Positions 3,363 through 63,787 of a DNA stretch of 64,000 bases are shown piece by piece. The position numbers and the translations under genes were made by a program. The stretch covers positions 217,974,005 to 218,038,004 of the forward strand of contig NC_092370.1 of NCBI RefSeq assembly GCF_030028105.1. The letters are read 5' to 3'. The DNA comes from Mobula birostris (Eukaryota). The notes below the pieces were generated by a model, which worked only from the letters and a program-made list of their open reading frames with translations, was not told where the DNA came from and ran no database searches. Within the stretch, counting starts at the first letter, position 1; the number at the start of each line of letters is the position of its first letter.

Positions 3363-3640
3363 ATTCAGAAATGCAGCAGTTTGATGATGTCCCTCTTTAC
3401 AATGATGTCATGTTGCCCTCCTCCACTGACCGGAAGACAGTAGACCTGGCACTATCACCCCTCCCTCATCCTGATACAGCAAAGCCGTTATGCAGTAGCA
3501 CAGAGTCGTCCTTGAATTTAGAATCGATGATCAAACTTGAAACGAACCAGGAGCCACTGGAATTTTCATTTACCATTCCACAAATGAATGAACAATCAAG
3601 CAGCTCTTCTTGTCCTTGCAGCAGTCAGAATTCAACACAA
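3363..3640 (+). CDS. HIF1A: HIF-1alpha exon 10 equivalent (ODD)
   Basis: ttgttttag| ... |gtaagt; DVPLYNDVMLPS...IKLETNQEPLEFSFTIPQ. Confidence 0.95.
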
Positions 3641-3679
3641 GTAAGTGTTCTTCAGCAGGCTTTTCAAATACATCATTTA

Positions 3680-4050
3680 CAAGTTTCCCCCGCTATCCGA
3701 AAGTAAAGCGTTCCTCTGAAACCTTTGTAAGCCGAAATGGCATACAGTAAAGAAGCAATTACCATTAATTTATATGGGGAAAAAGATTTTGAGCGTTCCC
3801 AGCCCCCAAAAAATAACCTACCAAATCATACCAAAAATCACCCGCATGCGCACACACACCTGCCCGCGCAAGGCTTCACGGTCATGGTAGTCTTTCACGG
3901 GGTAACCACAAGTTTAAAGCGGGCGCCTTTTTTTGTAAAAGCGAAAATCCTCTTCGGATTTCTTTTGGTTAGCAAAAACAGGTACTAATGTAGGTCTTTC
4001 GTAAAAGCGAAGTGGCGTAAAGCAAACTTTCGTAAAGCGGGGGGCACCTG
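3680..4050. mobile_element. Tc1/mariner-superfamily (Tigger/pogo-like) MITE in HIF1A intron 10
   Basis: TA on both sides; imperfect terminal inverted repeats CAAGTTTCCCCCGCT ... AGCGGGGGGCACCTG; no coding capacity. Confidence 0.75.
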
Positions 4051-4349
4051 TAATTAAATTCCTTTAAATTTGTGTAAGAACTAAAATTGTGTAACTGCTA
4101 AAAGGAACTCTACATTTAGAAATCTTCACTGATGAATTTTTTGAAATGAAACATGCACACATGTTAGAGCACATCTTCAACCATTACTGTGCTGCAGTTA
4201 GATTGGATATATTGAAGTTCTCCTACGGTTTGATTTTGTTTCCCTATACAAGAGGTAGTCCTATTTTTGTTCACAAATTCAATAGTAATAGTACTTTATT
4301 AATTTCCTGATTTGCTTTTACTCCATCTAATCATTAACTATTTTCACAG

Positions 4350-4472: not shown

Positions 4473-4926
4473 GTATGACAAAATACCTCTATAAAGAATT
4501 GTATTCCAAGTAATGCCAAAATCGCAATAGTACATTACAGAGCAAGGTAGATTCAGTGGGCCAAAAGGCTTAATTCTGCTCCTATATCTTATGGTCTAAG
4601 TAAACTCAGCCGAAACATCAGAGTAGTCCAGAAAGTTCCTGAACACTCCTATTGTATAACCTACCAAGCCAACTACCTGAGCACACTTTTAGTTAAAGTA
4701 CCCTGAGCCACATTAAATTCAAGTTTTCACTTTGAAAATGTAGATCATTTATTGTGAAGATGGAATTCAGAGAGATGGTTTCTGTTTTCGTTATTTTGTT
4801 TCACAGTACAGATAATTAAAACGATATTTTGAATTAGATCGAAGGTATGAATTTAGTTTTAGTCTATTTTAAGCCAAGAGCAAACTTGTGTCAATCTTAA
4901 TATATTTAAATGGTTAATTTCTTCAG

Positions 4927-5354
4927 GATATTGATAACTTGGATTTGGAGATGTTGGCTCCATACATCCCAATGGATGACGATTTTCAGCTACGATCACT
5001 GGACCAACTATCACCACTTGCTGATTCTCCAGCCACACCTCCCAGCGCACAAAGTTTGAACAATGTGGTTGACATCTTTCCACAAGCTGAAAGATCTATT
5101 AATAACACTCCACACAAGAATATGCAAGCATTAAAGCAGGTGGCTTTAAAGATTGAGCCTATGGTTGCAGTTAAGTCTTGCATACGTACAAATGAAATGA
5201 ATGGTACCCAAGAGTCACCATATTGCAAGGACAGCAGCAGAATGACTTCACCTGTTCGGACTGGAGGAAAAGGACTACAGTCACAGCAGAGTGATACTTC
5301 ACATTCACCGAGTCCTGTATCTCCAGTGAAGGCATTGCTTAATTATAGTAAAAG
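4927..5354 (+). CDS. HIF1A: HIF-1alpha exon 12 equivalent (C-ODD, Pro564-equivalent)
   Basis: tttcttcag| ... |gtaacc; [19 protein letters not shown] is the HIF1A-type (not EPAS1-type) VHL-binding motif. Confidence 0.97.
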
Positions 5355-6348
5355 GTAACCTGATTGTTTGTTTTCAGTATTTACTTGTTGAGGAATTGAT
5401 CCCTCCTGCATGTAGTCAGGTGATCACAGTTTTAGGATGGTTTTAATTACAGTCAGCCAGCACGTGAACTGAGAGAATTACACATAATATGCTGATCAGA
5501 AACAGATTAATTGGCTCAACCATTCCATTTCACACCAATCGTTCCTTGTCAAGCTCATCAAGTTTCCTTCTAAATGCATCTATACTGTTCACCTTAATTA
5601 TTGAAAACTGGGAAAATATATTATTGACGAATCTAAATTTGCTGTTTAGCAGAAGTAGAAAAACTCAGTAGACAGAATTGCAACATTTCAAAGACCTCAG
5701 TTCAGGTCTTCACGTTCTCTATTCGACAGAGATCCAGTTAGTTCATTCACCCTCAATGAATATCAAAAATGGATGAGGAAGGGAAAGAGATATGGAGTAA
5801 TTGAAAATACTGTGTCTTTGTCTAGCACTGGCCAAGAAACTCTGCTGTAACTCAATCTGTGACACATTTCCCTATGTCCGCTCCGGAACAAATATTACCT
5901 TGGATGCTGTTTACTTACTTTATTTACTGAAGTACTAATCTCTAAGGGTCTTTTAAGATAATGTACCAGTTTCTTCCAACTCAATTCATTTAAGCCAGTG
6001 ATGTGGTTAATTAATAATTGTATTGTGCATGCATTGTGTGTGTCAATAGGTGATTGTGTTCATGCAAGACTCCTTTGTGGTTTTCTGGGGGCTAGTATTC
6101 CTAGCCTATTCTTAATATTTGCACCTGGTGTATTATTTTTCCGCTGTGTAAAATTCAGCCTTTACTGAGTAAAAGGATTCACTGCAAAATTTGTATGGGT
6201 AAAAGGAAAAATGGCAGTGTAGTAAAGGTAAAGTTTGTATATGTGTATAGTGTGTACAAAGAAAATGCAGCATGCACTAGCAGAGGATTTTAAAGGTCTA
6301 ATATTGTATATTATGTAATTGCACTAAAACTGTTCTGGTTGCTCGAAG

Positions 6349-7087: not shown

Positions 7088-7300
7088 GTGTACAAACTCC
7101 TTACAGACAGTGGTGGGAATCGAAGTGTGATCAGTGAATGAGGTTTGATTCTTGCCACTGTCTGTAAGAAGTTTCCAAGTTCTCCCCATGACTGCATGGG
7201 TTTCCTCCAGTTCCTCTGGTTTCCTCCCACATTCCAAAACTCTGTAGTTAGAGTTAGTGCATTGTGGGCACACTGTTTTGGCACTGGAAACGTATGTGGG
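7088..7300. mobile_element. HE1/V-SINE-like fragments, head-to-head
   Basis: Core tgcatgggtttcctccagttcctctggtttcctcccacattccaaa; 7090-7123 is an inverted copy of 7143-7175. Confidence 0.65.
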
Positions 7301-7309
7301 GGTAGATAG

Positions 7310-8205
7310 AAGGGTGGGTTGACAAGTTTGCAGACGACACAAAGTTTGGTGCTGGTGTGGATGGTGTAGAGAATTGTCGAAGATTGCAGAGAGACATTGA
7401 TAGGATGCAGAAGTGGGCTGAGAAGTGGCAGATGGAGTTCAACCCGGAGAAGTGTGAGGTGGTACACTTTGAAAGGACAAACTCCAAGGCATAATACAAA
7501 GTAAATGGAGGATACTTGGAAGTATGGAGGAGCAAAGGGATCTGGGGGTACATGTCCACAGATCCCTGAAAGTTGCCTCACAGGTAGATAGGGTAGTTAA
7601 GAAAGCTTATGGAGTGTTAGCTTTCATAAGTTGAGGGATAGAGTTTAAGAGTCGCGGAGTAATGATGCAGCTCTATAAAACTCTGGTTAGGCCACACTTG
7701 GAGTACTGTGTCCAGTTCTAGTTGCCTCACTATCGGAAGGATGTGGAAGCATTGGAAAGGATACAGAGGAGATTTACCAGGATGCTGCCTGGTTTAGAGA
7801 GTGTGCATTATGATCAGAGATTAAGGGAGCTAGGGCTTTACTCTCTGGAGAGGAGAAGGATAAGAGGAGACATGATAGAGGTATACAAGATATTGAGTGG
7901 ACAGCCAGCGCCTCTTCCCCAGGGCACCATTGCTCAATACGGAGGACATGGCTTTAAGGTAAGGGGTGGGAAGTTCAAGGGGGGTATTAGAGGAAGGTTT
8001 TTTACTCAGAGAGTGGTTGGTTCGTGGAATGCACTGCCTGAGTCAGTGGTGGAGGCAGATACACTAGTGAAGTTTAAGAGACTACTAGACAGGTATATGG
8101 AGGAAGTTAAGGTGGGGGGGGGGGGTTATATGGGAGGCAGGGTTTAAGGGTTGGCACAACATTGTGGGCCAAAGGGCCTGTACTGTGCTGTACTGTTCTA
8201 CGTTC
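7310..8205 (+). mobile_element. CR1 LINE 3' portion (RT C-terminus and 3' tail)
   Basis: KFADDTK, PHYRKDVEALERIQRRFTRMLPG; tail ends ...ctgtactgttcta. Confidence 0.9.
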
Positions 8206-9703
8206 TATGACACTTGCCGGCTGCCCCCAGCACAATCCTTGCACAGTGTTGGTTATTGACACAATACAATGCATTTCACTGCATCTACATGTGACACATA
8301 AAGCTAATCTTATTTTATGGCTAACAGTAGGCAGGTATGTTTCTGGTTGCCCACAGAAGTAATGGTGGGTTTCCACTTGCTCCAGTTTATATACATGACC
8401 TGGATCAAGGCACTGAATAGTCACAGGTAGGTAGAAAAGTATGAAGAGTACACAAGAGGCTAGTAAAGTATATGGATATTTATTTAGATGATCAATTATA
8501 TATAATTGACTATTTTGGCAGGGAACAAAAAGCAGGTGTTTTATCCAAATTGTTATAGTATCTGAATATTTAAGACAGACACAGATAGATTCTTGATAAG
8601 CAAAAGATGAAAACTTACTGAAAGTCAGCACTTATGCAATTGAGAACAATTGATCTTGGAGCAGATTCAGAATTCTAAGTGGTATTTTCCTGAATATGAT
8701 ATCTTTGTAAAATAAAGATAAAATTTTGCATGGAACTAAAGTAGCTAAACTAACTTTGTCTCATCTCTTGCTACTGAATGGGGTCTGAAGCTTAATTTAG
8801 GGGAAATAAATTAATTGATATTTGAAATATTAATTGAAATTAATATTATAACCATATAACTATTTAACAATTACGGCACGGAAACAGGCCATCTTGGCCC
8901 TTCTAGTCTGTGGCGAACTCTTACTCTCACAAATCATAAATCAAAAACTAACAATAATCTGTGCTAGGATGAATTTGTAGTATGTGGCAATTTTAAACAT
9001 TTATACATCTAAAAGGAACTGGATTAATAAAACTCAGAGGTGCAGATCCTCTCAGAATATTGCAACTACAGTGCAACTAAAAGAATAAATTATGGGTTAC
9101 TGCACTAACCAATTTAAAGCAAAAATGTAGATTTATAGCTATTAATCATGATTTGTAATGGAACCATCAGAGTATTCCATTTATTGCATGTAGTCCTGGA
9201 CTTTGACCTGTGGTTATAGGGTGATTGGCATCCATTTCTATAAATATAGTCATGGATATTGATCAGAAGTAAAACAAACTGCAGATGATAGAGATATTTA
9301 GTAATAGTTGTATATAGATAAACAGTTAAAGTTTCAGACTAAACTTAAAGGTTTTTAAAAATTGGGTTTTAAATCGGTAGGTTGTAGTGGAATGAAATAT
9401 CTGATAGGAGACAGGCACCAAATAATTTGGACAGGGGGTGTGGTACAGAAAATAGCTGGTATTAGCTGAGAGAGTGAAGAGAAGTTGCTTCACTCAGCTG
9501 ATCTGCCTCAAGTAAAAGTAAACTGGGAGATGAATGAGCATAGAGAAAAACAAAGTTGCACTTGCAATCTTAATAATGCTAGAACCAAACAGTAATTCAG
9601 AAAGCATTTATGGAGAGAAGCCTTGCATCAGCATTGATGCATATTGGAAAGGCTTGATATCTGAATTCAATAATAATCAATGCTGAGGATTGTAACATGG
9701 CTA

Positions 9704-11286
9704 CAGTGCCTATTAAAAGTATTCACCCCCTCCCCTCGGAATTTTTCACATTTTTTTGCTTTACAACATTGAATCAGAGTGGATTTAATTTGGGTCTTTT
9801 GACACCAATCGACAGAAAAAGACACTTCCTTGACAAAATTAATTATAAATATAAATCACAAAATAATTTATTGCATAAGTATTCACCCCCTTCAAGTCAG
9901 TACTTAGTAGATGCACTTTTGGCAGCAATTGCAGCGTCGAGTCTGTGAGGATAGGTCTCTATCAGCTTTGCACATCTGGTCACTGCAATTTCCCCCCCCA
10001 TTCTTCCTTACAAGACTGCTCAAACTCTGTCAGATTGCATGGGGAGCGTGAGTGAACGGCCCTTTTTAAGCCCCTCCACAAATTCTCGATTGGATTGAGG
10101 TCTGGACTCTTGACTTGGCCATTCCAGGTCATTAACTTTGTTGTTTTTAAGACATTCCTGTGCAGCTTTGGCTTTATGCTTGGGGTTATTGTCTTGCTGG
10201 AAGACAAATCTTCTCTCAAGTCGCAGTTCTCTTGCAGTCTGCATCAGGTTTTCCTCCAGGATTTCCCTGTATTTTGCTGCATTCATTTTACCTTCTACCT
10301 TCACAAGCCATGAAGCATCCCCACAGCATGGTGCAGCAACCTCCATGCTTCATGGTAGAGATGGTGTGTTTATGATGATGTGCGGTGACTGGGTTATGCC
10401 AAACATAGCATTTAATCTGATGGCCAAGAAAATTAATTTTGGTTTCATCAGACCATAGAACCTTCAGAGTCTTCCATGTGCCTTCTGGCAAACTCTAGCT
10501 GAGATTTCATGAGTGTATTTCTTCAACAGTGGCTTTCTCTGGGCCACTCTCCCATAAATCTGCGACTGGTGAAGCACCTGGGCCACAGTTGTTGTATGCA
10601 CAGTCTCTCCCATCTCAGCCACTGAAGCTTGTAACTCCTCCAGAGTTGTCATAGGTCTCTTGGTGGCCTCCCTCACTAGTCCCCTTCTCGCACGGTCACT
10701 CAGTTTTTGATGATGGCCTGTTCTAGGCAGATTTACAGCTGTGCCATATTCTTTCCATTTCTTGATGATTGACTTAACTGTACTCCAAGGAATATCCAGA
10801 GACTTGGAAATTTTCTTGTATCCATGTGCTGACTTGTGCTTTTCAATAACTTCGTGGAGTTGCTTGGAGTGTTCTTTTGTCTTCATGGTGTAGATTTTTG
10901 CCGGGATACTGACTCACCAGCAGTTGGACCTTCCATATACAGGTGTATTTTTACAACAATTGATTGAAACTCCTTGAACGCACACAGGTCTCCAAAAACG
11001 GATCTCCATTTAATTAATGATGTGACTTCTAAAACCAGTTGGCTGCACCAGTGATGATCTAGTGTGTTATTATTAAGGGGGGAGGAGGTGAATACTTATG
11101 CAATCAATCATTTTGTGTTTTATATTTGTAATTAATTTAGATCACTTTGTAGAGATCTGTTTCCACCTTGACACAAAAGTGTCTTTTTTTGTTGATTGGT
11201 ATCAAAAAAGCCAAAACATGACAATAGAAAATAAAACATGAAAATTTCCAAATGGGGTTGGGGCTGTATACTTTTGATAGGCACTG
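9704..11286 (-). mobile_element. Tc1 (Passport-like, IR/DR type) DNA transposon with frameshifted transposase, in HIF1A intron 13
   Basis: TA on both sides; TIRs CAGTGCCTATTAAAAGTAT / ATACTTTTGATAGGCACTG; ORF pieces MKTKEHSKQ...[36 protein letters not shown]. Confidence 0.93.
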
Positions 11287-18630: not shown

Positions 18631-18782
18631 ATATAGTAGCCAGACTTCTGGCTCATTCAGCAGAGGACAGTAGCTTGCCAACACTCACCAACTATGACTG
18701 TGAAGTGAATGCGCCTATCCAAGGCAACAGAACCCTGCTTCAGGGTGAAGAAGTGCTTAGAGCATTGGATCAGGTCAATTAA
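18631..18782 (+). CDS. HIF1A: HIF-1alpha last coding exon 15 equivalent (C-TAD, Asn803-equivalent) with stop
   Basis: ttactttcag|; [35 protein letters not shown] then TAA. Confidence 0.97.
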
Positions 18783-20035
18783 GGTCTCAGACCTGAACAA
18801 AGTAATGGACAATGGCAAAGCCCCAGCACCCAAAGCAGTCTATTTATATTTTCTAAATCTGATTATTATAAAAGCCTGGCTACAACTGCAGTTTTTCAGT
18901 TAGCGGTGCTCCTCCACTGACCCCATCCATGCCTGCTCTTCATTTGCAGTTTTGGTCCAGTTGGTTTGAAATATCTTTCTGATACGTGATGTTTTTAGGT
19001 AGATGGACATCCCTGGGATCCATCGGGAAGGTGAAATGACAGTGACACATGCTATAAGTAAATACATTTTGGTGGTCTGTTTTAATGAGCACTGAAATCT
19101 GTATCTCCAATTCTTGAATTTATAATAGCTGTTACTCTTAAGACTGAGTAAATACTAAAAGGGATATAGCACCTTTTAGTGACCATTCTTTAACCTGGAT
19201 GGGAAAGATTATGTTAATATGATTCACTGCAGAATTTCTGCCTGTTGCTTTGCCAGCTGTTAATTGTAGCCACAATTGCACAAAATATATTTTCTTATTA
19301 AGTACCAGCAGTACTTTATGCAATATGTTTTGCAGTTATATATGTAGTTTTTAAGAAAGAGGAGCTCCAACTTGATTTTTTTAGTTACTTAGTTTAAGAT
19401 GAAGGTTAGGAATGGAATGCATACATAAATAATCACTTTGTACTTGTCATTTTTAATCTAGAAAGGCTTATATTGAACAGTTAAAAGAACCAACTTCCTT
19501 TTAAGCAGCTGTTTGTTGGAAACAGAATGTTGGCAACTTAAATATGGGCAATGTCTCTTTTGATGTGAAGTCTAATATTATTAGTCATTTGTTCTCCAGC
19601 GCATGTAATTCCTACGGTAGTAGTGGAGGTTCATGCTATATCATAGCAACACTTAAGTCTAAATGCTGCTGCTTTTTCTGCATTGTTTAGGTAGTACAGA
19701 GTGTAAATGTAACAATTCCATTGTATTAGAAGACCTAGTTTGGTTATTTAGTCTGTCTTGGTTCTAAAGCACTTTGTCACTTAATTCCCAATTAAAGTAT
19801 CATGTAGGTTGTAAGTTCCTTTTTGTTTCTCTATCCCTTTGACACCACGTTCCTACCCCTACCATTTCCTGGCCTTACACCAGTTCTTGAAGTTATCCCA
19901 AAATCCTTCGCGCGTGAGATTGTATCGTACAACTTGGATTGTTTTTGCTCAGTCATCCTTTGCTATTTGTGGTTGGATCTAACACTAACTGTATTGTTTC
20001 ATTACATCAATAAACATTATATGTGGACCAGGCTC
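18783..20035 (+). other. HIF1A: HIF1A 3'UTR (approximate end)
   Basis: Transposon-free, AT-rich stretch after the stop; ends ...atcAATAAAcattatatgtggaccaggc, resembling the human HIF1A mRNA end as I recall it. Confidence 0.8.
20009..20014 (+). terminator. Polyadenylation signal AATAAA of HIF1A (a second AATAAA lies at 20114-20119)
   Basis: Canonical hexamer within the terminal conserved block; GT-rich sequence downstream (~20040). Confidence 0.75.
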
Positions 20036-45075: not shown

Positions 45076-46089
45076 TTTGTCTTGTTTGTGACAGGGTTAA
45101 ACGAAATTGGTGTGATCTTTCATTGAATTCTATTATGGATTTATTGAGTATGCCTGCAAGAAAATGAATCTCAGGTTTGTACATGATAATAAATTTACTT
45201 TGAACTTTCAGTTTCATAGGTTCTTGATTACTGAGGGTGTCAAAGGTTACGGGGAGAGGGCACCAGAACTTACAGTGAACCCGTGTTGCTGGCTTTAGGC
45301 TAACTACTACACTACTATGCTGCCCATTACTTGGGCTTCTCTTAACTTTGGACTGGTGAGAAAAAAATGCATCAAGCAAAACTATATTCATCAAGAGGGT
45401 AGTATTTTAAAGAGTACTTATTGTAAACCATGAGATTTTGCTTACATGTTTCAAGTTTACATTTGAGTGCCCAATCATGTTTTAACTATTGCAATGACAC
45501 AAAGGGATCATGTTCAGCAGAAAGATGATCTTTGCATCAAATTGAGTGGAATGACAGAAGTCACATGGAGCTTATATGCGGCCAGTCCATCCACAGAATA
45601 TTAACTTGTTTCAGTGGCAAGGAAGGGGAAAGAAAGTTTTTGCAAATGAGTCACTATCAGCAATTTGCTGGTATTGTCAAGGTGTCAATCTTAACACATC
45701 TCACGTTTCAAATTGGGCTCAGGTATCTTCGGTACAACATTTAATGGAATTCCCATCTGCTGAAAGTGGACATATTAATAGATACAGTATTTATACTTGA
45801 ATTCTCATGGCTAACGTATTAACTACACTCTAAATGCCTTACATTTATATAAGCACGTTTAATGGCTTACAACATCTCAAGGTGCTCTTCAATCCTCAAA
45901 GCCTGTCACCCAACTGAAGGGAAAGTTTCAAGGTCGTAGGTAAAAGCTTGGTTAACAAGGTGGATTCCGAGGATCTTAGCAGAAGCGGTTCGGTTGGGGT
46001 GGGGTGGGGGGGGGTGTCAAATGCTGATTTGGTTCACAGTGCAAATAGAACTTTAGGAATTCTATTGCTACAGATCCCCTAATAATTTA

Positions 46090-47070
46090 AACTTGACGTC
46101 ATGTTCCTATTTAATTGTTTTGACAAAATTGACTTAATTTTCTCATCTATTAAATATCTCCTAAAACAAATTTAAAGCTTCTCGTTAGATATCATTCCCG
46201 AACAGGTCGGCAGTGCACCGAGCGATGGTTTGTAGAAACGACAAATTCACACTTCCAGACCAGACCAGACCTCGCCTGTCATTCGCAGCCCATCTGTTTC
46301 AGCCAACATCTCCGCCCCTCTGTGGTACGTGATCACAGGCACTTGCCTCCCCAGGGCAGCAGACAACAAGGAACAGCCAGAACCGCTCGTATCGCTCGTC
46401 AGCTCAAGCCAAATCATGCCTACGTGCTGAAACGCATGGTACGACTGCAAATAATAACTTTGCTCAATAACCAAGGGGAGTGTCTAAATATGAGAGATGG
46501 ACGAAATTCAACGAGTGGATTGTGTTATAGGTACCGTTAGAGCAGTTAGTAATTTCAGCAGTGGAAATTGCTAAGGATTTGGGAATACATTTGAAAATGA
46601 CGTTCGTCAGAAATCCACGATTCAATCCAAGGGCAGTAACCTAATACATAATCGATAAGAACAGAAAATCGACGTTCAATGGCAGTTTTAAAAGCAGGGG
46701 TAGGGTTCAGAGTCCTTGCAGCAATGAAAGGCACCGCAATATCCAGTTTCCCTTCCAGGAATGAATGTTTTGCGACATCGAGCAAGAGCATAAACTTTGG
46801 AAAACTCTTCCACGCGCAGCCCAGTAAACCACTATGAGGATTCCAATTTCCCCACGCCAGGTAGTGACAGGTTCCACGAGATCTGGACCATCTCTGGTGG
46901 TATCTTAACAGCATTTACTATTGGCTGTGCACGTTTTCCTTGAAAACAAGCTTCAGTCCAGATACCGCCAAAAGACGGGCGTGGACCAATGCAGCGGGGG
47001 ATCAACGAGTGACAGGAAGGACACTAACTCTGATGGAAGGATATGAAATCAGGTGTGGGAGCCACGTGTT
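46090..47070. promoter_or_regulatory. CpG-enriched promoter/enhancer-like island with HRE cluster, CRE, CCAAT boxes and GC box
   Basis: TGACGTCA 46094; TACGTG 46326; TACGTGCT 46421; CACGC 46811 and 46853; ATTGG 46920; CACGT 46930; GGGCGTGG 46977; CCAAT 46986; CACGTG 47063; CpG visibly denser than in the flanks. Confidence 0.6.
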
Positions 47071-47211
47071 ACATGTCAAAATACAAGATCAAATGAGTTA
47101 CAAAGAGAGAATGAAATAATCTGTCACTGAAGAAATAACTTTAAATTAATAAAAGTGCAATTTGAAAAAAAATAATCTCCAACTAAAACCTCAGTATTGA
47201 GACTCAGATTC

Positions 47212-47490
47212 AGAATTATTTGTCACATGTACATGGAAACATACAGTGAAGTGCATCATTTGTGTTAACGATCAGCACCCCCAAAGATGTGCTGAAGGCA
47301 GCCTGCTGTTTCACCACACATTCCTGTGCCAACATAGCATGCCCACAGTGTTCCACAGAACACAAGCAGCAACAACAAGACAACAGCCAAACAAGCCCCT
47401 TTCCTATCCGTCCACTAACCCTCCAATGCAGGCCTCCGACTCCAGGACAGACCACCTCCAGCCAGCCTCCAAGTCCTCCAGGGCTCCATA
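47212..47490 (-). mobile_element. Short interspersed repeat with Rex/L2-like tail (related copy at ~8210-8315, + strand)
   Basis: Shared block ggcagcc...cacatgtacatggaaacatacagtgaagtgcat in opposite orientation at the two loci. Confidence 0.5.
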
Positions 47491-48200
47491 CATAAAACAA
47501 GTTTATGTAACCAGGGGGCTAATGTGACCAACACTTTCCCATGCCATCCCAAGTGTTCTTCATTTGCTATAGCCTGATAACGAGGAATGAGATTTTCTTT
47601 GCCATAGGTTTGGGACTACAGATATTAACATTTGGTCAAAGCAGAAAACGGCGATTGCAAAATCCAGCTGCTGGCCAAGGCATTTCATAAAAGTTCGCCT
47701 TCTTAGCAAACAATCTATGATCGCTTGCATTTTAGGAAATGCATTATTAGGATGCATTAGGATTACATTAGGAGGGTATAAGACATCACCTGCAATATGT
47801 AGCATTAAAATAAAACCCAGACTAGATGAAAGAGAGATGGGGACAGGGAGATAGGGGCAGCAGCAAGCTTTCACTGAAAAAGCATGTCAATTTATTGGAT
47901 CCTGACACAGTACAACAGTTTACATGGTACGTTCCTGGTGATCTGGGGAGGCTCAAAGTCACTTGCAGGTGACCTTGTAACTCTGCATCCACCCAACCAT
48001 CAGGTTAGTCTCCCATCTAAAACATAGCATCTCAGATAATCCACCATTTGGCAAATGAAACTGCATTCCCAATTCTTGAAGGAGTTGGAACTTTATTGCA
48101 TAACTTTCTGACTTAGGGATGAAATGTGACATCTTAAGCAAACTGAAGGTTAAAACATAAAAGGTTGAGATTAATATATAAACAAACGCAGGTTCAAGGT

Positions 48201-49120
48201 ACACCCCCAGCCTCTAACCTCTCCACCTACACCCCCAGCCTCTAAAACCTCTCCACTGACACCCCCAGCCTCTAAAACCTCTCCACTGACACCCCCAGCC
48301 TCTAAAACCTCTCCACCGACACCCCCAGCCTCTAAAATCTCTCCGACACCCCCAGCCTCTAAACTCTCTCCACCGACACCCCCAGCCCCTAACCTCTCCA
48401 CCGGCACCCCCAGCCTCTAAAACCTCTCCACCGACACCCCCAGCCTCTAAAACCTCTCCACCGACACCCCCAGCTAAAACCTCTCCACCGACACCCCCAG
48501 CCTCTAAACCCTCTCCACCGACACCCCCAGCCTCTAAACCCTCTCCACTGACACCCCCAGCCTCTAACCTCTCCACCAACACCCCTAGCCTCTAAACCCT
48601 CTCCACCGACACCCCCAACCTCTAACCTCTCCACCGACACCCCCAGCCTCTAAACCCTCTCCACTGACACCCCCAGCCTCTAAACCCTCTCCACTGACAC
48701 CCCCAGCCTCTAATCCCTCTCCACTGACACCCACAGCCTCTAACCTCTCCACCGACACCCCCAGCCTCTAAAACCTCTCCACCGACACCCCCAGCCTCTA
48801 AAACTCTCCACTGACACCCCCAGCCTCTAAACCCTCTCCACTGACACCCACAGCCTCTAACCTCTCCACCGACACCCCCAGCCTCTAAAACCTCTCCACC
48901 GACACCCCCAGCCTCTAAAACTCTCCACTGACACCCCCAGCCTCTAAGATCTCTCCACCGACACCCCCAGCCTCTAACCTCTCCACCTACACCCCCAGCC
49001 TCTAACCTCTCCACCTACACCCCAGCCTCTAAAACCTCTCCACTGACACCCCTAGCTAAAACCTCTCCACCGACACCCCCAGCCTCTAAAACCTCTCCAC
49101 TGACACCCCCAGCCTCTAAA
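48201..49120. repeat. Minisatellite, ~28-30 bp unit CTCTCCACYGACACCCCCAGCCTCTAA(AA)C, about 31-32 copies
   Basis: Directly visible tandem array with length variants. Confidence 0.97.
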
Positions 49121-49254
49121 AATGTGTGTTGCTTGAAATTCCAGCATCTGCAGATTTCCTTGTGTTCAGGTTCAAGGTTCCAAGTTAGGCAAAGTTTATT
49201 GATTCTGACATTATGAAATCCAAGGAAAAATGCAATAACATTAGTTACACTGGT

Positions 49255-49785: not shown

Positions 49786-52019
49786 CAAATAAGATACCTG
49801 ACATAATGGCACTCTGCAGAAGCCGAAGATGTAGAAACCATTCAGTCTGTCCAGCCTGTCCTGGCATTCAGTCCAATTATGGCCTGCTAATACCTTAACT
49901 GTACTTATCCATGCCTCCATAGACTTGGGTTATTAAATATAGTCACTCACACTTCCAACTAACCCAAAATCCTACTACTCTGAGAAAGTGCCAGATTTCC
50001 ACAACACTATTTCAACTCTAAGTAAACCAGATTCATTTAAGTATACTTCCTTCTGGTGCTGCTGCCCCTTATTTTCTGCTACTTATCTATTTAATACTGG
50101 TTTTCTATTACTGCCTTGTTTTTATCTACCGCTTTATTTAATTGTCTGAGAGGAAGCCAAACAAAGTTTCATTGTACTTATATATAATTACAGTAAAGAT
50201 CATTCAAACTACATTTTTCCATCTATAGATACTCTAAACGTGCCTACTTTATTAAAGATCTTGCATTCTTCTACAAATACAAAGAAGTCTGTGAATTTTA
50301 GATTTCACAAAAACGTAACCACTTACAACCCTAATTGGTGATTGATAATTGATACAAAGCTAGAATACCTTGTCTAGGCCAGAATGCCAATTCAATACCT
50401 GAACCTTGTACTTCATTAGAGATCTAACCAATGCTCCCTAGTGTTGAAACCTCAGAAGATACATATTCCAAATAGGTTGGACTAAAGTTTAAATTATAGT
50501 TTGTACCAATGTTTTAATGTTAAGTGCTCTGGCACACAATTCCCTTTGTTCCTCATTCCCAAAGAGGAAAATATTTTAATGTTTACCTTTGAGTACAGTG
50601 TGGGTAATACCACATGTGGCCAATGAAAACCATTTGCACACTTTTGACCATCCACTTTACTTGTGTAAATTGCCATTCCAAGCTCTGAATTTCATTTTGC
50701 CCTGTCTGGCTTCATCTATTGATTTGGACATGTTATATTGCTCCATCTAAATCTATTAACACTAACCCAGTAGGTCCTTTGTAGATATTAGTATCACAGT
50801 TATTGCATCCCTGTAACCTTACTCTCTACCACTGACTTCCATAACATGTACCAGCCGACATTCTCAATTCACACTTTCATTTCTGTTAAAATTATTTGCA
50901 TGATCATTAGTAACTGAGTTTTGCAAGTCCACGGAAAGACTACCACCAAAAATTAATTTCAATCACCTTGAAAAAAAATATCGGCAATCAATGATTAACT
51001 TGTACTTTTCCATGAGGTCATAGTGTTCAGAATACACTCACCGAAAAACTATCTGTGTATCCATGGCATCAAACTGTCATGAAGAGCACTGGATATTTAA
51101 GAATAGAATTGACGTTGCACATAAGCATTCATTTATATCATTAGCCCAAGCTAGATTCTTCACTCATTGTCAATAACAGATGGAAGAACTGGATTTCAAC
51201 AACTGACATCCAGGAATGAAGATCACCAGTTGTGTGATTTTACAGAACTTGTGTGGTCCTTAAGCAACATTCATGAAAGAAAGGATGTCAAAGATCACTA
51301 AAAAGAGAATGACAATTCATCCCAGGGTCTTTGAGCATTTACAGCTTACTTAGTACAATTCCTTCCACACAAAACATGAGAATGATATTAATATTCACCA
51401 ATATGTTCTAAGAAATATTTGATTGTATGGTGATCTGCATCAGGGTGAATAGATATGACTTTCCAGTTACAATTTTTTCACTAACCTACAATTAGATGAA
51501 TGAAGAAACATTAACGAAATCACTGGGCTCCTTATTAATCATTCTCACAATACATTTATACTGTAGTTTTCGAATATCCATGATACAATGAAAGGATTCT
51601 AACTTTTCACCACAGATCCATTCAAATATAATCTACCACAATCACAAAACCAAATTCCAGTAACAGAACAGCATAAATGATCATTTATAAAATAACTGGC
51701 CACTTTAAAATTTCACATAATTCATCAACGTTTTGTTTGTACACAGCTTGCAATATGAACCAACCACGGACATGGAAACAACATAACCATCTCACCTTTT
51801 CTCTTCGGACTACGCATTTAACCCCAATTCCCAATGAACTCTAGATTTAAAATCTGTATCATGAACCTCAGTCAACAGATCATTGTATCACACATTTCTC
51901 GTTGCTAATACATTAAAAACTAAACTTCCAATATAGTATAAGATAAGCATTCATTACTTCTAGCGAGGATGGGCATAGATAAGAAGGGGCCATGGAAAAC
52001 TCATTCCACTGTGATTCTG

Positions 52020-52625
52020 GTACCGGCGGCGCGGGTAAATTGAAGCACTGAATTACATTACTTACCTTGTTCAGTTTTAACAAAATGCAACGGGTTTGGA
52101 GGGGGGGAAACGAAGCATTTGAAAGGAGATACAATTTACGCCGAAAACAAGAATGCATTTTCTTATCATGCTACTCACAGCGAAGTTTAACAACTAATAC
52201 TCAGCAGGGCTCTCGACTGGTAGCTTGCTGTTGCACATACTAACCAATCACTTCGCAGAATGGGCCATCTGCAAGAACGACGACCAATCATATTTACTTA
52301 CGCCTACCATTCGCCAGGAGGGGCACTCAATTCCGCCAATCACACCAAAACAAGTGCGGCAAACTGAGGTTGAAGAGACCAATCAAATCGCAGCGACACC
52401 GTATATCAACAAGAGCACGGGGCTGTTGCCGGAGTGTACCGGTAAACCCGGGTCCGGGTGGTATATTACCAGATGACCACACTGGATATCTGAACCACAC
52501 CCTGATTTTGCTCGATAGGAGTGGGGGAAGAAATGGCGGAAATTGCACCATTAAAAACGTGCATTCTGTGACGGCCGTGCAAGTCTAACAAAACAATTTC
52601 ACGTACGTTTTACTATTACGTGTAT
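52020..52625. promoter_or_regulatory. CpG-enriched, probably bidirectional promoter with four CCAAT boxes and a YY1-like site
   Basis: CCAATCA at 52244, 52284, 52336 and 52379; AAATGGCGG at 52531; ACGTG cores at 52557, 52600 (reverse) and 52618; consensus minus-strand donor AAG|GTAAGT at 52066/52065. Confidence 0.72.
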
Positions 52626-52779
52626 TGCATTACTATTCACTATGACTACTTACTTTCACTTTTTCAACATTGTTGCCTCTGCATTGTTTCAAGCCTGACA
52701 GCCATGCTATCTCACGAAAATCCCACAGACTCGCTAAACAAGCCCTTGCGTAATTTCATTTGTGGTCTCTTTACTTAAG

Positions 52780-53150
52780 CTACTGTACTTGCTGTTAGGA
52801 GTGCAGAGAAATATCCCTTCACGGGTTCCGGGAATAACCAGTTGCCTGTACAAAGAGAAAGTCAGTGGGCTGAGTCTGCTGGAACTATTTTAGGGCTTGA
52901 TTGGCTGCATACAGGGAGGATGTTTCGTTTTGACCGAGGTTTCTAGAACCAACCGTCATGATTTTAAAGTAAGAGATAGTTCATTTAGTTCTGAGATAAA
53001 GAAGAGTCTCTTCATTGATTTGTGAACCTTTCGGTTTCTCTCCAAATGCAGGTTCAGTTATCGTACTCATTCAAAACACAGATCAGCTAATTTCAGAACA
53101 TTGAGGGAATCAGGCAGTATGGTGTGGAAAATGGCATTGCAATTGAAAAA
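52780..53150 (+). mobile_element. Old CR1 3' remnant
   Basis: Degenerate ggagtgcagaga...tctagaacc...gagggaatcagg tail-type sequence. Confidence 0.55.
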
Positions 53151-62660: not shown

Positions 62661-63133
62661 ATTCTTGATTCTGTCAAGACCATTTTAAGCAATATCCACA
62701 TAAAGCTGGGGGAACTCCGCAGGTCACATCCATGGAAAAGAGTACAGTCAATGTTTTGGACCGAGACCCTTCATCAGGACCACTTTAACCTCTTTTTCTG
62801 AATTTTAATTATGCCTATCAAATCAACTTTTAATCTTCACTGGTCCAGCACTGACTTGTCAAATTTATTTTCTTTTCAGTATTCTGTTGGTTTTCATTTA
62901 GTTTGACTCCCTCTATCCCTTTAATTTTCCTCCTATGTTATAGAACCTAAAACTCCTCAAAAAATCTAATCCTGGGTATTGATTTTTAAGTCTTTGTCAT
63001 GCTCGGAAATGAGAATTTATGTATATGGTACCAGTTTAAAATCTTGTTGACCTAACCTCTAAATTTACCCTATTGTTGCACATTGAAGCATATAACGTTT
63101 TAAACCAAGATGTTCCACCTGGTGTATCTAGGT

Positions 63134-63787
63134 CAGCGGTCCCCAACCACTGGGCCGCGGACCGGTACCGGGCTGCAAAGCACGTGCTACCGGGCCGTGT
63201 GGAAACGACATGATTTGGCGATATGAGTCAGCTGCACCTTTCCTCATTCCTTGTCACGCCCACTGTTGAGCTTGAACGCAAGCGAGGTCATTACCCGCGC
63301 ATCATCCATGTCAGCGCGGGAAGAAGATCAACTCCTCGAGCTTGCAAATGACGAGGGACTGGAAAGTATGTTTGACATAACATCTCTGCCGGCATTCTGG
63401 ATCAAAGTCAAGACTAACTATCCTGAGATAGCCATGAAAGCACTGAAAATGTTGCTTCCATTTCCAACATATCACTGCGAAGCGGGGTTTTCTGCAATGA
63501 ATGCAACTTAAACTAAATTGCGGAATAGACTGGACATAAGGAATTCCCTTTGAGTATCGCTGTCTCCCATCACCCCTTGATAGGACCATGTTGTTGCAGG
63601 GAAACAAGCCCAGGGCTTCATGGTCATTGTAGTCTTTCTCGGGGTAAGCTCAACGTATTTGACTGCTACTCTTGTCCGTTGGCAGCCCTACCCTCCCCCC
63701 CCCCCCCCCCCCCCGCGGTCGGCCGGTCCGCAAGAATATTGTCAATCGTAAACCGGTCCACAGTGCAAAAAAGGTTGGGGACTCCTG
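63134..63787 (+). mobile_element. Non-autonomous hAT-Charlie/Buster-like element with transposase C-terminal (dimerisation) fragment
   Basis: Perfect 8-bp TSD atctaggt (63126-63133 and 63788-63795); TIRs CAGCGGTCCCCAACC / GGTTGGGGACTCCTG; FWIKVKTNYPEIAMKALKMLLPFPTYHCEAGFS. Confidence 0.93.

Follow-up and report, generated by a model that had tools for sequence, protein, structure and literature searches.

Between HIF1A and SNAPC1 we found two single-copy patches of DNA that have retained their CpG dinucleotides, and each carries a closely spaced pair of the word TACGTG. The first, island 1 (45,815 to 47,066), is very probably a regulatory element. The second, island 2 (51,729 to 53,033, minus strand), looks like an unannotated promoter that faces HIF1A, whatever its regulation. 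That the two islands are HIF-responsive and act together, with the promoter in island 2 and an enhancer or second start in island 1, is a reading of their motifs that we consider quite possible, a little short of probable. Positions throughout are those of the window, the whole 64-kb stretch that was analyzed (217,974,005 to 218,038,004, within a 4.0-Gb genome).

The HIF1A-SNAPC1 interval and its CpG-retaining patches

HIF1A occupies the plus strand of the window, with a Pfam HIF-1 match at 4,918 to 5,355. Its last coding exon (18,636 to 18,782, plus strand), identified by Pfam and by comparison with solved chains, encodes the C-terminal transactivation domain, which ends at 18,779, and the stop codon; the C terminus agrees with solved HIF-1alpha chains to the last residue. 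The sole other match to this domain, on contig C9, has a different ending and is taken here to be EPAS1, an EPAS1-type paralogue. HIF1A probably has its 3' end at the AATAAA signals located at 20,009 and 20,114. SNAPC1 is next on the same strand, with its first coding exon at about 68,460 in window numbering, and CpG-rich promoter patches lie at about -32 kb for HIF1A and about +65.8 kb for SNAPC1 in the same numbering. Island 1 is located about 26 kb past the likely 3' end of HIF1A and 21 kb before SNAPC1. Its placement between these two genes, as in human, was borne out by the Pfam and coding-exon positions. The earlier note had described it as downstream of HIF1A, which is correct insofar as HIF1A lies upstream on the plus strand, but the patch is not adjacent to the gene. 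When the distance between HIF1A and island 1 was masked with a small repeat library, 11.2 of its 25.8 kb remained unmasked.

Island 1 contains 47 CpGs at a GC content of 0.45, and its observed/expected (o/e) CpG ratio of about 0.75 compares with 0.12 to 0.19 for three further pieces of single-copy DNA in the interval. A classical CpG island has a GC content above 50% and an o/e ratio above 0.6. The patch had been called a CpG-enriched island; the enrichment stands (o/e 0.74 amid stretches at 0.12 to 0.19), but at 45% GC it lies below the classical definition, and because of this GC content we treat it as a CpG-retaining patch and keep "island" as a label. Its CpG retention suggests that it is likely unmethylated in vivo. 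Non-methylated islands of cold-blooded vertebrates have the same profile of high CpG o/e at near-background GC, are often enhancers or start sites for long non-coding RNA and, in zebrafish, combine low GC with high o/e (PMC3583005); here methylation state is inferred from CpG retention.

Genome searches with three queries from islands 1 and 2 returned one match per query, in a search that passes over very common words, and the two islands are accordingly described as single-copy. Masking against 600 kb of other genome left every base of 45,850 to 47,070 unmasked, and no terminal repeats were found for island 1. Given its single copy, the absence of any masked base against the 600 kb and the lack of terminal repeats, we rejected the idea that island 1 is a transposable element. 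A coding exon at island 1 was also rejected: Pfam matched 0 of 11 non-HIF open reading frames (ORFs) and then 0 of 12 ORFs in and around the islands, in line with the claim that no host coding exon is associated with the patch. Since two of four true HIF1A exons likewise gave no Pfam match, the unmatched ORFs of island 1 are not proof that it is non-coding. A search of Rfam over 44 to 54 kb gave a single sub-threshold match, outside the island, and a tRNA scan of the window found none.

Other parts of the locus showed features of their own. The stretch at 3,431 to 4,227, over and after an internal HIF1A exon, retains CpGs (26, with no RCGTG and 47% masked) and is possibly an intragenic regulatory element of HIF1A. 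About 21.2 to 21.8 kb left of the window start (locus L013), some 10 kb inward from the HIF1A promoter island, there is a single-copy CpG-retaining patch, which probably sits in HIF1A intron 1. On the minus strand, within a HIF1A intron, 10,023 to 10,913 holds broken ORFs that we take to resemble a Tc1-type transposase. Between the two islands, at 48,170 to 49,150, lies a C-rich tandem array with a unit of about 30 bases and a strong GC skew. The CpG-rich patch at 63,004 to 63,755 contains an ORF with no Pfam match, which presumably resembles the C terminus of a hAT transposase. The SNAPC1 promoter patch spans +65,757 to +66,647 (1,750 to 2,650 of locus L005) and carries 7 RCGTG words among 51 CpGs and no TACGTG; it is 43% repeat-masked, and a first-exon donor lies near +66,440.

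HIF-type motifs in the two islands

The earlier note had drawn attention to eight RCGTG cores in island 1, along with a cyclic AMP response element (CRE), two CCAAT boxes and a GC box. We located all eight cores at their places or within 1 base of them, and the CRE and the CCAAT and GC boxes likewise within one base. The CRE is a full palindrome (46,094 to 46,101). The first TACGTG, site 1, is followed after 2 bases by CACAG at 46,334 (46,326 to 46,338, plus strand), and the second, site 2 (46,421 to 46,426), lies within TGNNTACGTG (46,417 to 46,428, plus strand) and bears a TG flank of the kind preferred by HIF (PMC12774657). Words of the TGNNTACGTG type, TACGTG with a TG flank, number 15 in 1.22 Mb, and the two sites are 95 bp apart. 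A motif search further placed a cluster resembling a proximal promoter at 46,852 to 46,990. It comprises GC-box-like words at 46,852 and 46,977, which we take to be sites for SP/KLF factors, two outward-facing CCAAT boxes (46,920, minus strand; 46,986, plus strand) and AACGTG at 46,930. The word GGGCGTGG was present at 46,977, as claimed, and both GC-box-like words had been counted as hypoxia response elements (HREs). The last core belongs to a palindromic E-box, CACGTG, at 47,063 to 47,068, a word favored in SELEX by ARNT homodimers rather than HIF (PMC12774657). The eight cores therefore comprise two inside SP/KLF-type GC boxes (46,853 and 46,979), one weak GCGTG (46,811), the E-box (47,063), two AACGTG and two TACGTG; only two or three of the eight are likely to be functionally relevant.

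The density of these cores exceeds the CpG expectation to a modest degree. Eight RCGTG among 46 CpGs compare with about three expected at the background rate of 0.070 (binomial P = 0.013), a value that rises to 0.083 when the two cores that set the boundaries are dropped; a dinucleotide shuffle gave P = 0.004. Treated as a scan statistic, the density has P = 0.028 when the 64-kb window is scanned and P = 0.62 when 264 kb are. The description of a dense HRE cluster was thus right about a nominal excess but overstated it, given the result over 264 kb and the several weak or E-box words among the cores. For comparison with other islands we used a sample of 1.22 Mb, made up of the 264-kb region, 68 random 10-kb loci and control loci. 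It held 116 CpG-rich patches; 27 of them, less than half masked and with 25 or more CpGs, were kept, and only 6 of the 27 were from the random loci. Island 1 ranked first of the 27 for RCGTG, an enrichment over other islands that is nominally significant (P = 0.012) but falls to about 0.3 after correction for 27, and the runners-up were an EGLN-locus island (6/36) and the SNAPC1 promoter (7/51). Among 32 comparable word classes, RCGTG was the most enriched in island 1.

The number of motifs does not, on this evidence, mark HIF control, as had been supposed. Islands at expected HIF targets were not dense in RCGTG (1/52, 1/62 and 7/123 CpGs at three DDIT4-family loci; 6/55 at the PGK promoter), and RCGTG density is therefore no marker of expected HIF targets here; we discarded it as such. 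In human cells, fewer than 1% of promoter RCGTG motifs are HIF-bound (PMC2719312). A far denser cluster lay elsewhere, at about 8,200 to 9,100 of locus L074 (G000:C9:106,720,212), with 15 RCGTG among 28 CpGs; this patch is probably a short tandem repeat, and repeats can yield far denser RCGTG clusters.

The TACGTG pair is a better signal than the RCGTG count. TACGTG was the top SELEX word for HIF-alpha/ARNT, with a TG three to four bases upstream preferred, and SIM1/ARNT2 binds the TACGTG core too (PMC12774657). The TACGTG pair of island 1, one copy of which is TG-flanked, speaks for the proposed HIF module. Island 2, which was picked for its CpG content (48 CpGs, o/e 0.80) before its motifs were inspected and is absent from the earlier note, has AACGTG at 52,557 and TACGTG at 52,600 (minus strand) and 52,617 (plus strand), all within 52,557 to 52,622, and its TACGTG copies are 17 bp apart. 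The HIF1A-SNAPC1 interval thus contains two TACGTG pairs within 100 bp versus 0.096 expected (P = 0.005, partly post hoc in that the island 1 pair was the starting observation); the island 2 pair alone, in an island not chosen for motifs, gave P = 0.013. TACGTG was the only one of 136 CpG-centered hexamer classes to be paired in both islands; the remaining 25 mostly single-copy islands had no such pair. The statistic hinges on the chosen word and distance: at 50 bp island 1 is without a pair, and 664 kb held three pairs versus 1.3 expected (P = 0.15).

Elsewhere, TACGTG pairs were close to expectation or absent: one in the 68 random 10-kb loci versus 1.7 expected, and none in the 78 kb behind the EPAS1-type gene, where there were also no mostly single-copy islands. 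The positive control was weak. Two EGLN loci held three pairs versus 0.9 expected (P = 0.067), and none was found in the PGK and DDIT4-family islands or the other controls, among which we counted a third EGLN-search match (contig C9) that lacked an EGLN motif. One of the three EGLN pairs is formed by an inverted-repeat element of 120 bases that sits within an EGLN intron and has one TACGTG in each arm (about 7,200 to 7,320 of locus L075, G000:C3:168,565,200); such a small mobile element could spread HRE pairs. A second EGLN intron pair is single-copy, with a 9-bp spacing, upstream of the catalytic exons (about 1,890 to 1,910 of locus L079, G000:C3:168,599,892), and is a candidate for a true HRE. 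The EGLN loci thus lend weak support to using TACGTG pairs as an indicator of HIF targets. A repeat-derived patch in locus L058 also carries a TACGTG pair, together with 8 RCGTG.

Promoter anatomy and alternative readings

Island 2 has the clearer anatomy of a promoter facing HIF1A. It contains four CCAAT[C] boxes on the same strand (52,244 to 52,384), the sole instance in 1.22 Mb of four such boxes within 150 bp. Immediately downstream (left) of this cluster lie two strong minus-strand splice donors, as ranked with an approximate scoring table. One is the consensus AG|GTAAGT (52,060 to 52,067), an 8-mer that occurs 38 times in 1.22 Mb on both strands, and the other is at 51,790 to 51,797. This arrangement would fit a minus-strand start near 52,200, with the RCGTG words about 350 to 420 bp upstream of it, and we infer that island 2 is a promoter with a first exon of about 130 bases facing HIF1A. 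Scans for acceptors returned numerous loose candidates and did not lead to an exon model. Island 1 lacks a strong donor on the minus strand; its plus strand carries one moderate donor, at 47,053. The proposal that the flagged patch is itself the antisense promoter was not supported, the two strong donors being in the 52-kb island; judged by this anatomy, island 2 is more promising as an antisense-facing promoter, and the likely promoter moves 5.5 kb to the right of the flagged patch. Island 1 would fall in the first intron of a transcript started at island 2, and its motifs make it more likely to be a HIF-bound enhancer of the island 2 promoter or a second start.

Recorded sequencing runs touch island 1 lightly. 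None of those that hold the patch is listed as RNA in its record, which says nothing about expression. Of 23 recorded runs, four were placed on it (X9, X10, X11 and X12), whereas X13, X14, X15 and X16 have small shares of it, the last two from organisms D and E; that X9, X10 and X12 are RNA is a guess, X12 being flagged "probably DNA". X11 was dropped as RNA evidence, since three of its four contig ends fall on GATC, and it is most likely restriction-cut DNA. Contigs of the other three cover 46,616 to 47,091 (depth 3.8 to 6.3, strandless) and overlap in common at 46,795 to 46,906. A triple overlap has a chance probability of 0.16, and the contigs hint weakly at most that there is low-level transcription; X10 covers two further patches (46,018 to 46,256 and 47,406 to 47,814). 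No splice joint was seen in contigs of the four runs over the single-copy part, at low depth and strandless. The same runs leave uncovered 46,317 to 46,607, with both TACGTG sites, and 45,250 to 45,928; holes between contigs prove nothing. At 46,681, contigs of X10 and X11, which come from different studies, start at exactly the same base, where there is neither a splice signal nor GATC. Island 1 is also present in organisms B and C. In organism B, 96 to 98% identical over the contigs and too close to show constraint, the CRE and both CCAAT boxes are unchanged and four of five covered RCGTG cores are kept, with 46,930 lost; this coverage excludes the TACGTG pair.

Taken together, the motifs of the two islands suggest the following mechanism. 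The CRE, CCAAT and GC boxes would hold both patches open and unmethylated, and HIF binds unmethylated sites only (PMC7384226). In hypoxia, stabilized HIF-alpha/ARNT would occupy the TACGTG pairs, a spliced non-coding transcript directed at HIF1A would arise from island 2, and transcription in the antisense direction would rise. Island 1 would boost the output of island 2 as an enhancer or add a weak second start. Should the RNA extend over the roughly 26 to 32 kb to HIF1A, it would lower elongation of that gene in the manner of human HIF1A-AS3.

A credible alternative, although one that we lean against, is that this is an ordinary unmethylated intergenic promoter or enhancer with no role for HIF, its RCGTG excess being the upper tail of CpG retention plus SP/KLF boxes. 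The scan probability of 0.62 over 264 kb agrees with this, the SNAPC1 promoter and the EGLN-locus island have similar ratios (7/51 and 6/36), GCGTG or E-box words account for four of the eight cores, and intergenic non-methylated islands are common in zebrafish and often enhancers (PMC3583005). What this account leaves unexplained is the TACGTG pair found in both islands of the interval and in 0 of 25 others. It is very unlikely that island 1 is a young insertion or a decayed mobile element, without function and with its CpGs not yet lost. Most CpG-rich patches of the sample (89 of 116) were indeed mostly repeat or too small to count, the repeat-derived patch in L058 shows that 8 RCGTG and a TACGTG pair can arise in this way, and the genome search passes over very common words; against this stand the single genome match for each of three queries, the lack of any match in the 600-kb background, the absence of terminal repeats and the presence of island 1 in organisms B and C.

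Two further readings concern where transcription starts and which way it acts. Island 1 could itself be a hypoxia-driven antisense promoter: transcription would begin on the minus strand near 46.85 kb, downstream of the CCAAT box at 46,920, and produce an RNA that runs unspliced toward HIF1A. Outward-facing CCAAT and GC boxes at 46,852 to 46,990 are consistent with this; a donor would not be needed, because in endothelial cells human HIF1A-AS remains largely unspliced (PMC10630634), and two tandem antisense promoters have a precedent, because the human AS2 promoter lies in the first intron of AS3 (PMC12310967). We nevertheless consider it unlikely: a strong minus-strand donor is absent, the best HREs would fall 400 to 500 bp inside the transcript, and contigs of X9 and X12 cross the supposed promoter. 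The element may instead act rightward, as an enhancer or upstream start of SNAPC1 or as the source of a sense-strand non-coding RNA. SNAPC1 is the nearer gene (promoter island at +65.8 kb, first coding exon at +68.5 kb) and the donor at 47,053 is on the plus strand, but SNAPC1 has its own island and first-exon donor, the strong donors of island 2 point the opposite way, and human SNAPC1 is not hypoxia-regulated despite a nearby HIF peak (PMC2719312). A rightward action is therefore quite unlikely, still more so than a start in island 1.

Comparison with known HIF-regulated elements

The preferred reading, a HIF-responsive pair with its promoter in island 2, has a human counterpart in the antisense unit behind HIF1A. 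The promoter of human HIF1A-AS3 lies about 2.8 kb past HIF1A and includes an HRE to which HIF binds, and removing this promoter doubles HIF1A under hypoxia (PMC10630634); the HRE is required for reporter induction (PMC7910558). Like the HIF1A-AS3/HIFAL promoter, the islands are situated between HIF1A and SNAPC1, downstream of HIF1A, and contain consensus HREs (TACGTG at 46,326, 46,421, 52,600 and 52,617), and the human locus also has two tandem antisense promoters, that of AS3 and that of AS2 in the AS3 first intron. The distances differ about tenfold, with the human start about 2.8 kb past the gene and the islands about 26 and 32 kb. The evidence differs as well: binding, induction and HIF1A repression by HIF1A-AS3 come from ChIP, reporter and deletion experiments, and the case made here is one of sequence anatomy. 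By analogy, the element may work like the HIF1A-AS3 promoter. A stronger version treats the locus as a two-part HIF autoregulatory module: CCAAT boxes would drive an antisense promoter at 52 kb, whose first intron would hold, at 46 kb, an enhancer or second promoter with HREs. The module would mirror human AS3/AS2, share its descent from one ancestral element and have been pushed 26 to 32 kb off by repeat insertions; we regard this as improbable.

Were the element shared with human AS3/AS2 by descent, the antisense control of HIF1A would go back as far as jawed vertebrates themselves. So far such feedback is known from human cells, HIF1A-AS3's first exon being conserved across placental mammals (PMC12310967), and the literature searched, in which subscription journals were largely absent and papers were available in part, reported no HIF1A antisense unit from fishes, sharks and rays included. 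Should HIF bind either island and that island be transcribed toward HIF1A, the feedback that turns HIF1A off during prolonged hypoxia would be of great age or would have arisen twice at one location; otherwise, the locus offers one more intergenic CpG-retaining element.

Human cells provide a second parallel in the same interval, as inferred from the array design. One of the top five HIF-1alpha ChIP peaks lies upstream of SNAPC1 and was assigned to it, a gene that was not regulated; the peak is listed without RCGTG (PMC2719312). In the available text of PMC4532367, SNAPC1 appears only as a fusion partner.

Island 1 also recalls features of a well-studied element at another gene. The EPO 3' enhancer lies downstream of its gene and has a TACGTGCT core, with CACAG near the HRE at a distance of about 8 bases. 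Island 1 shares the TACGTGCT core, a CACAG near a TACGTG and a position downstream of a gene, but its CACAG follows the other site, a TACGTG, after 2 bases instead of about 8.
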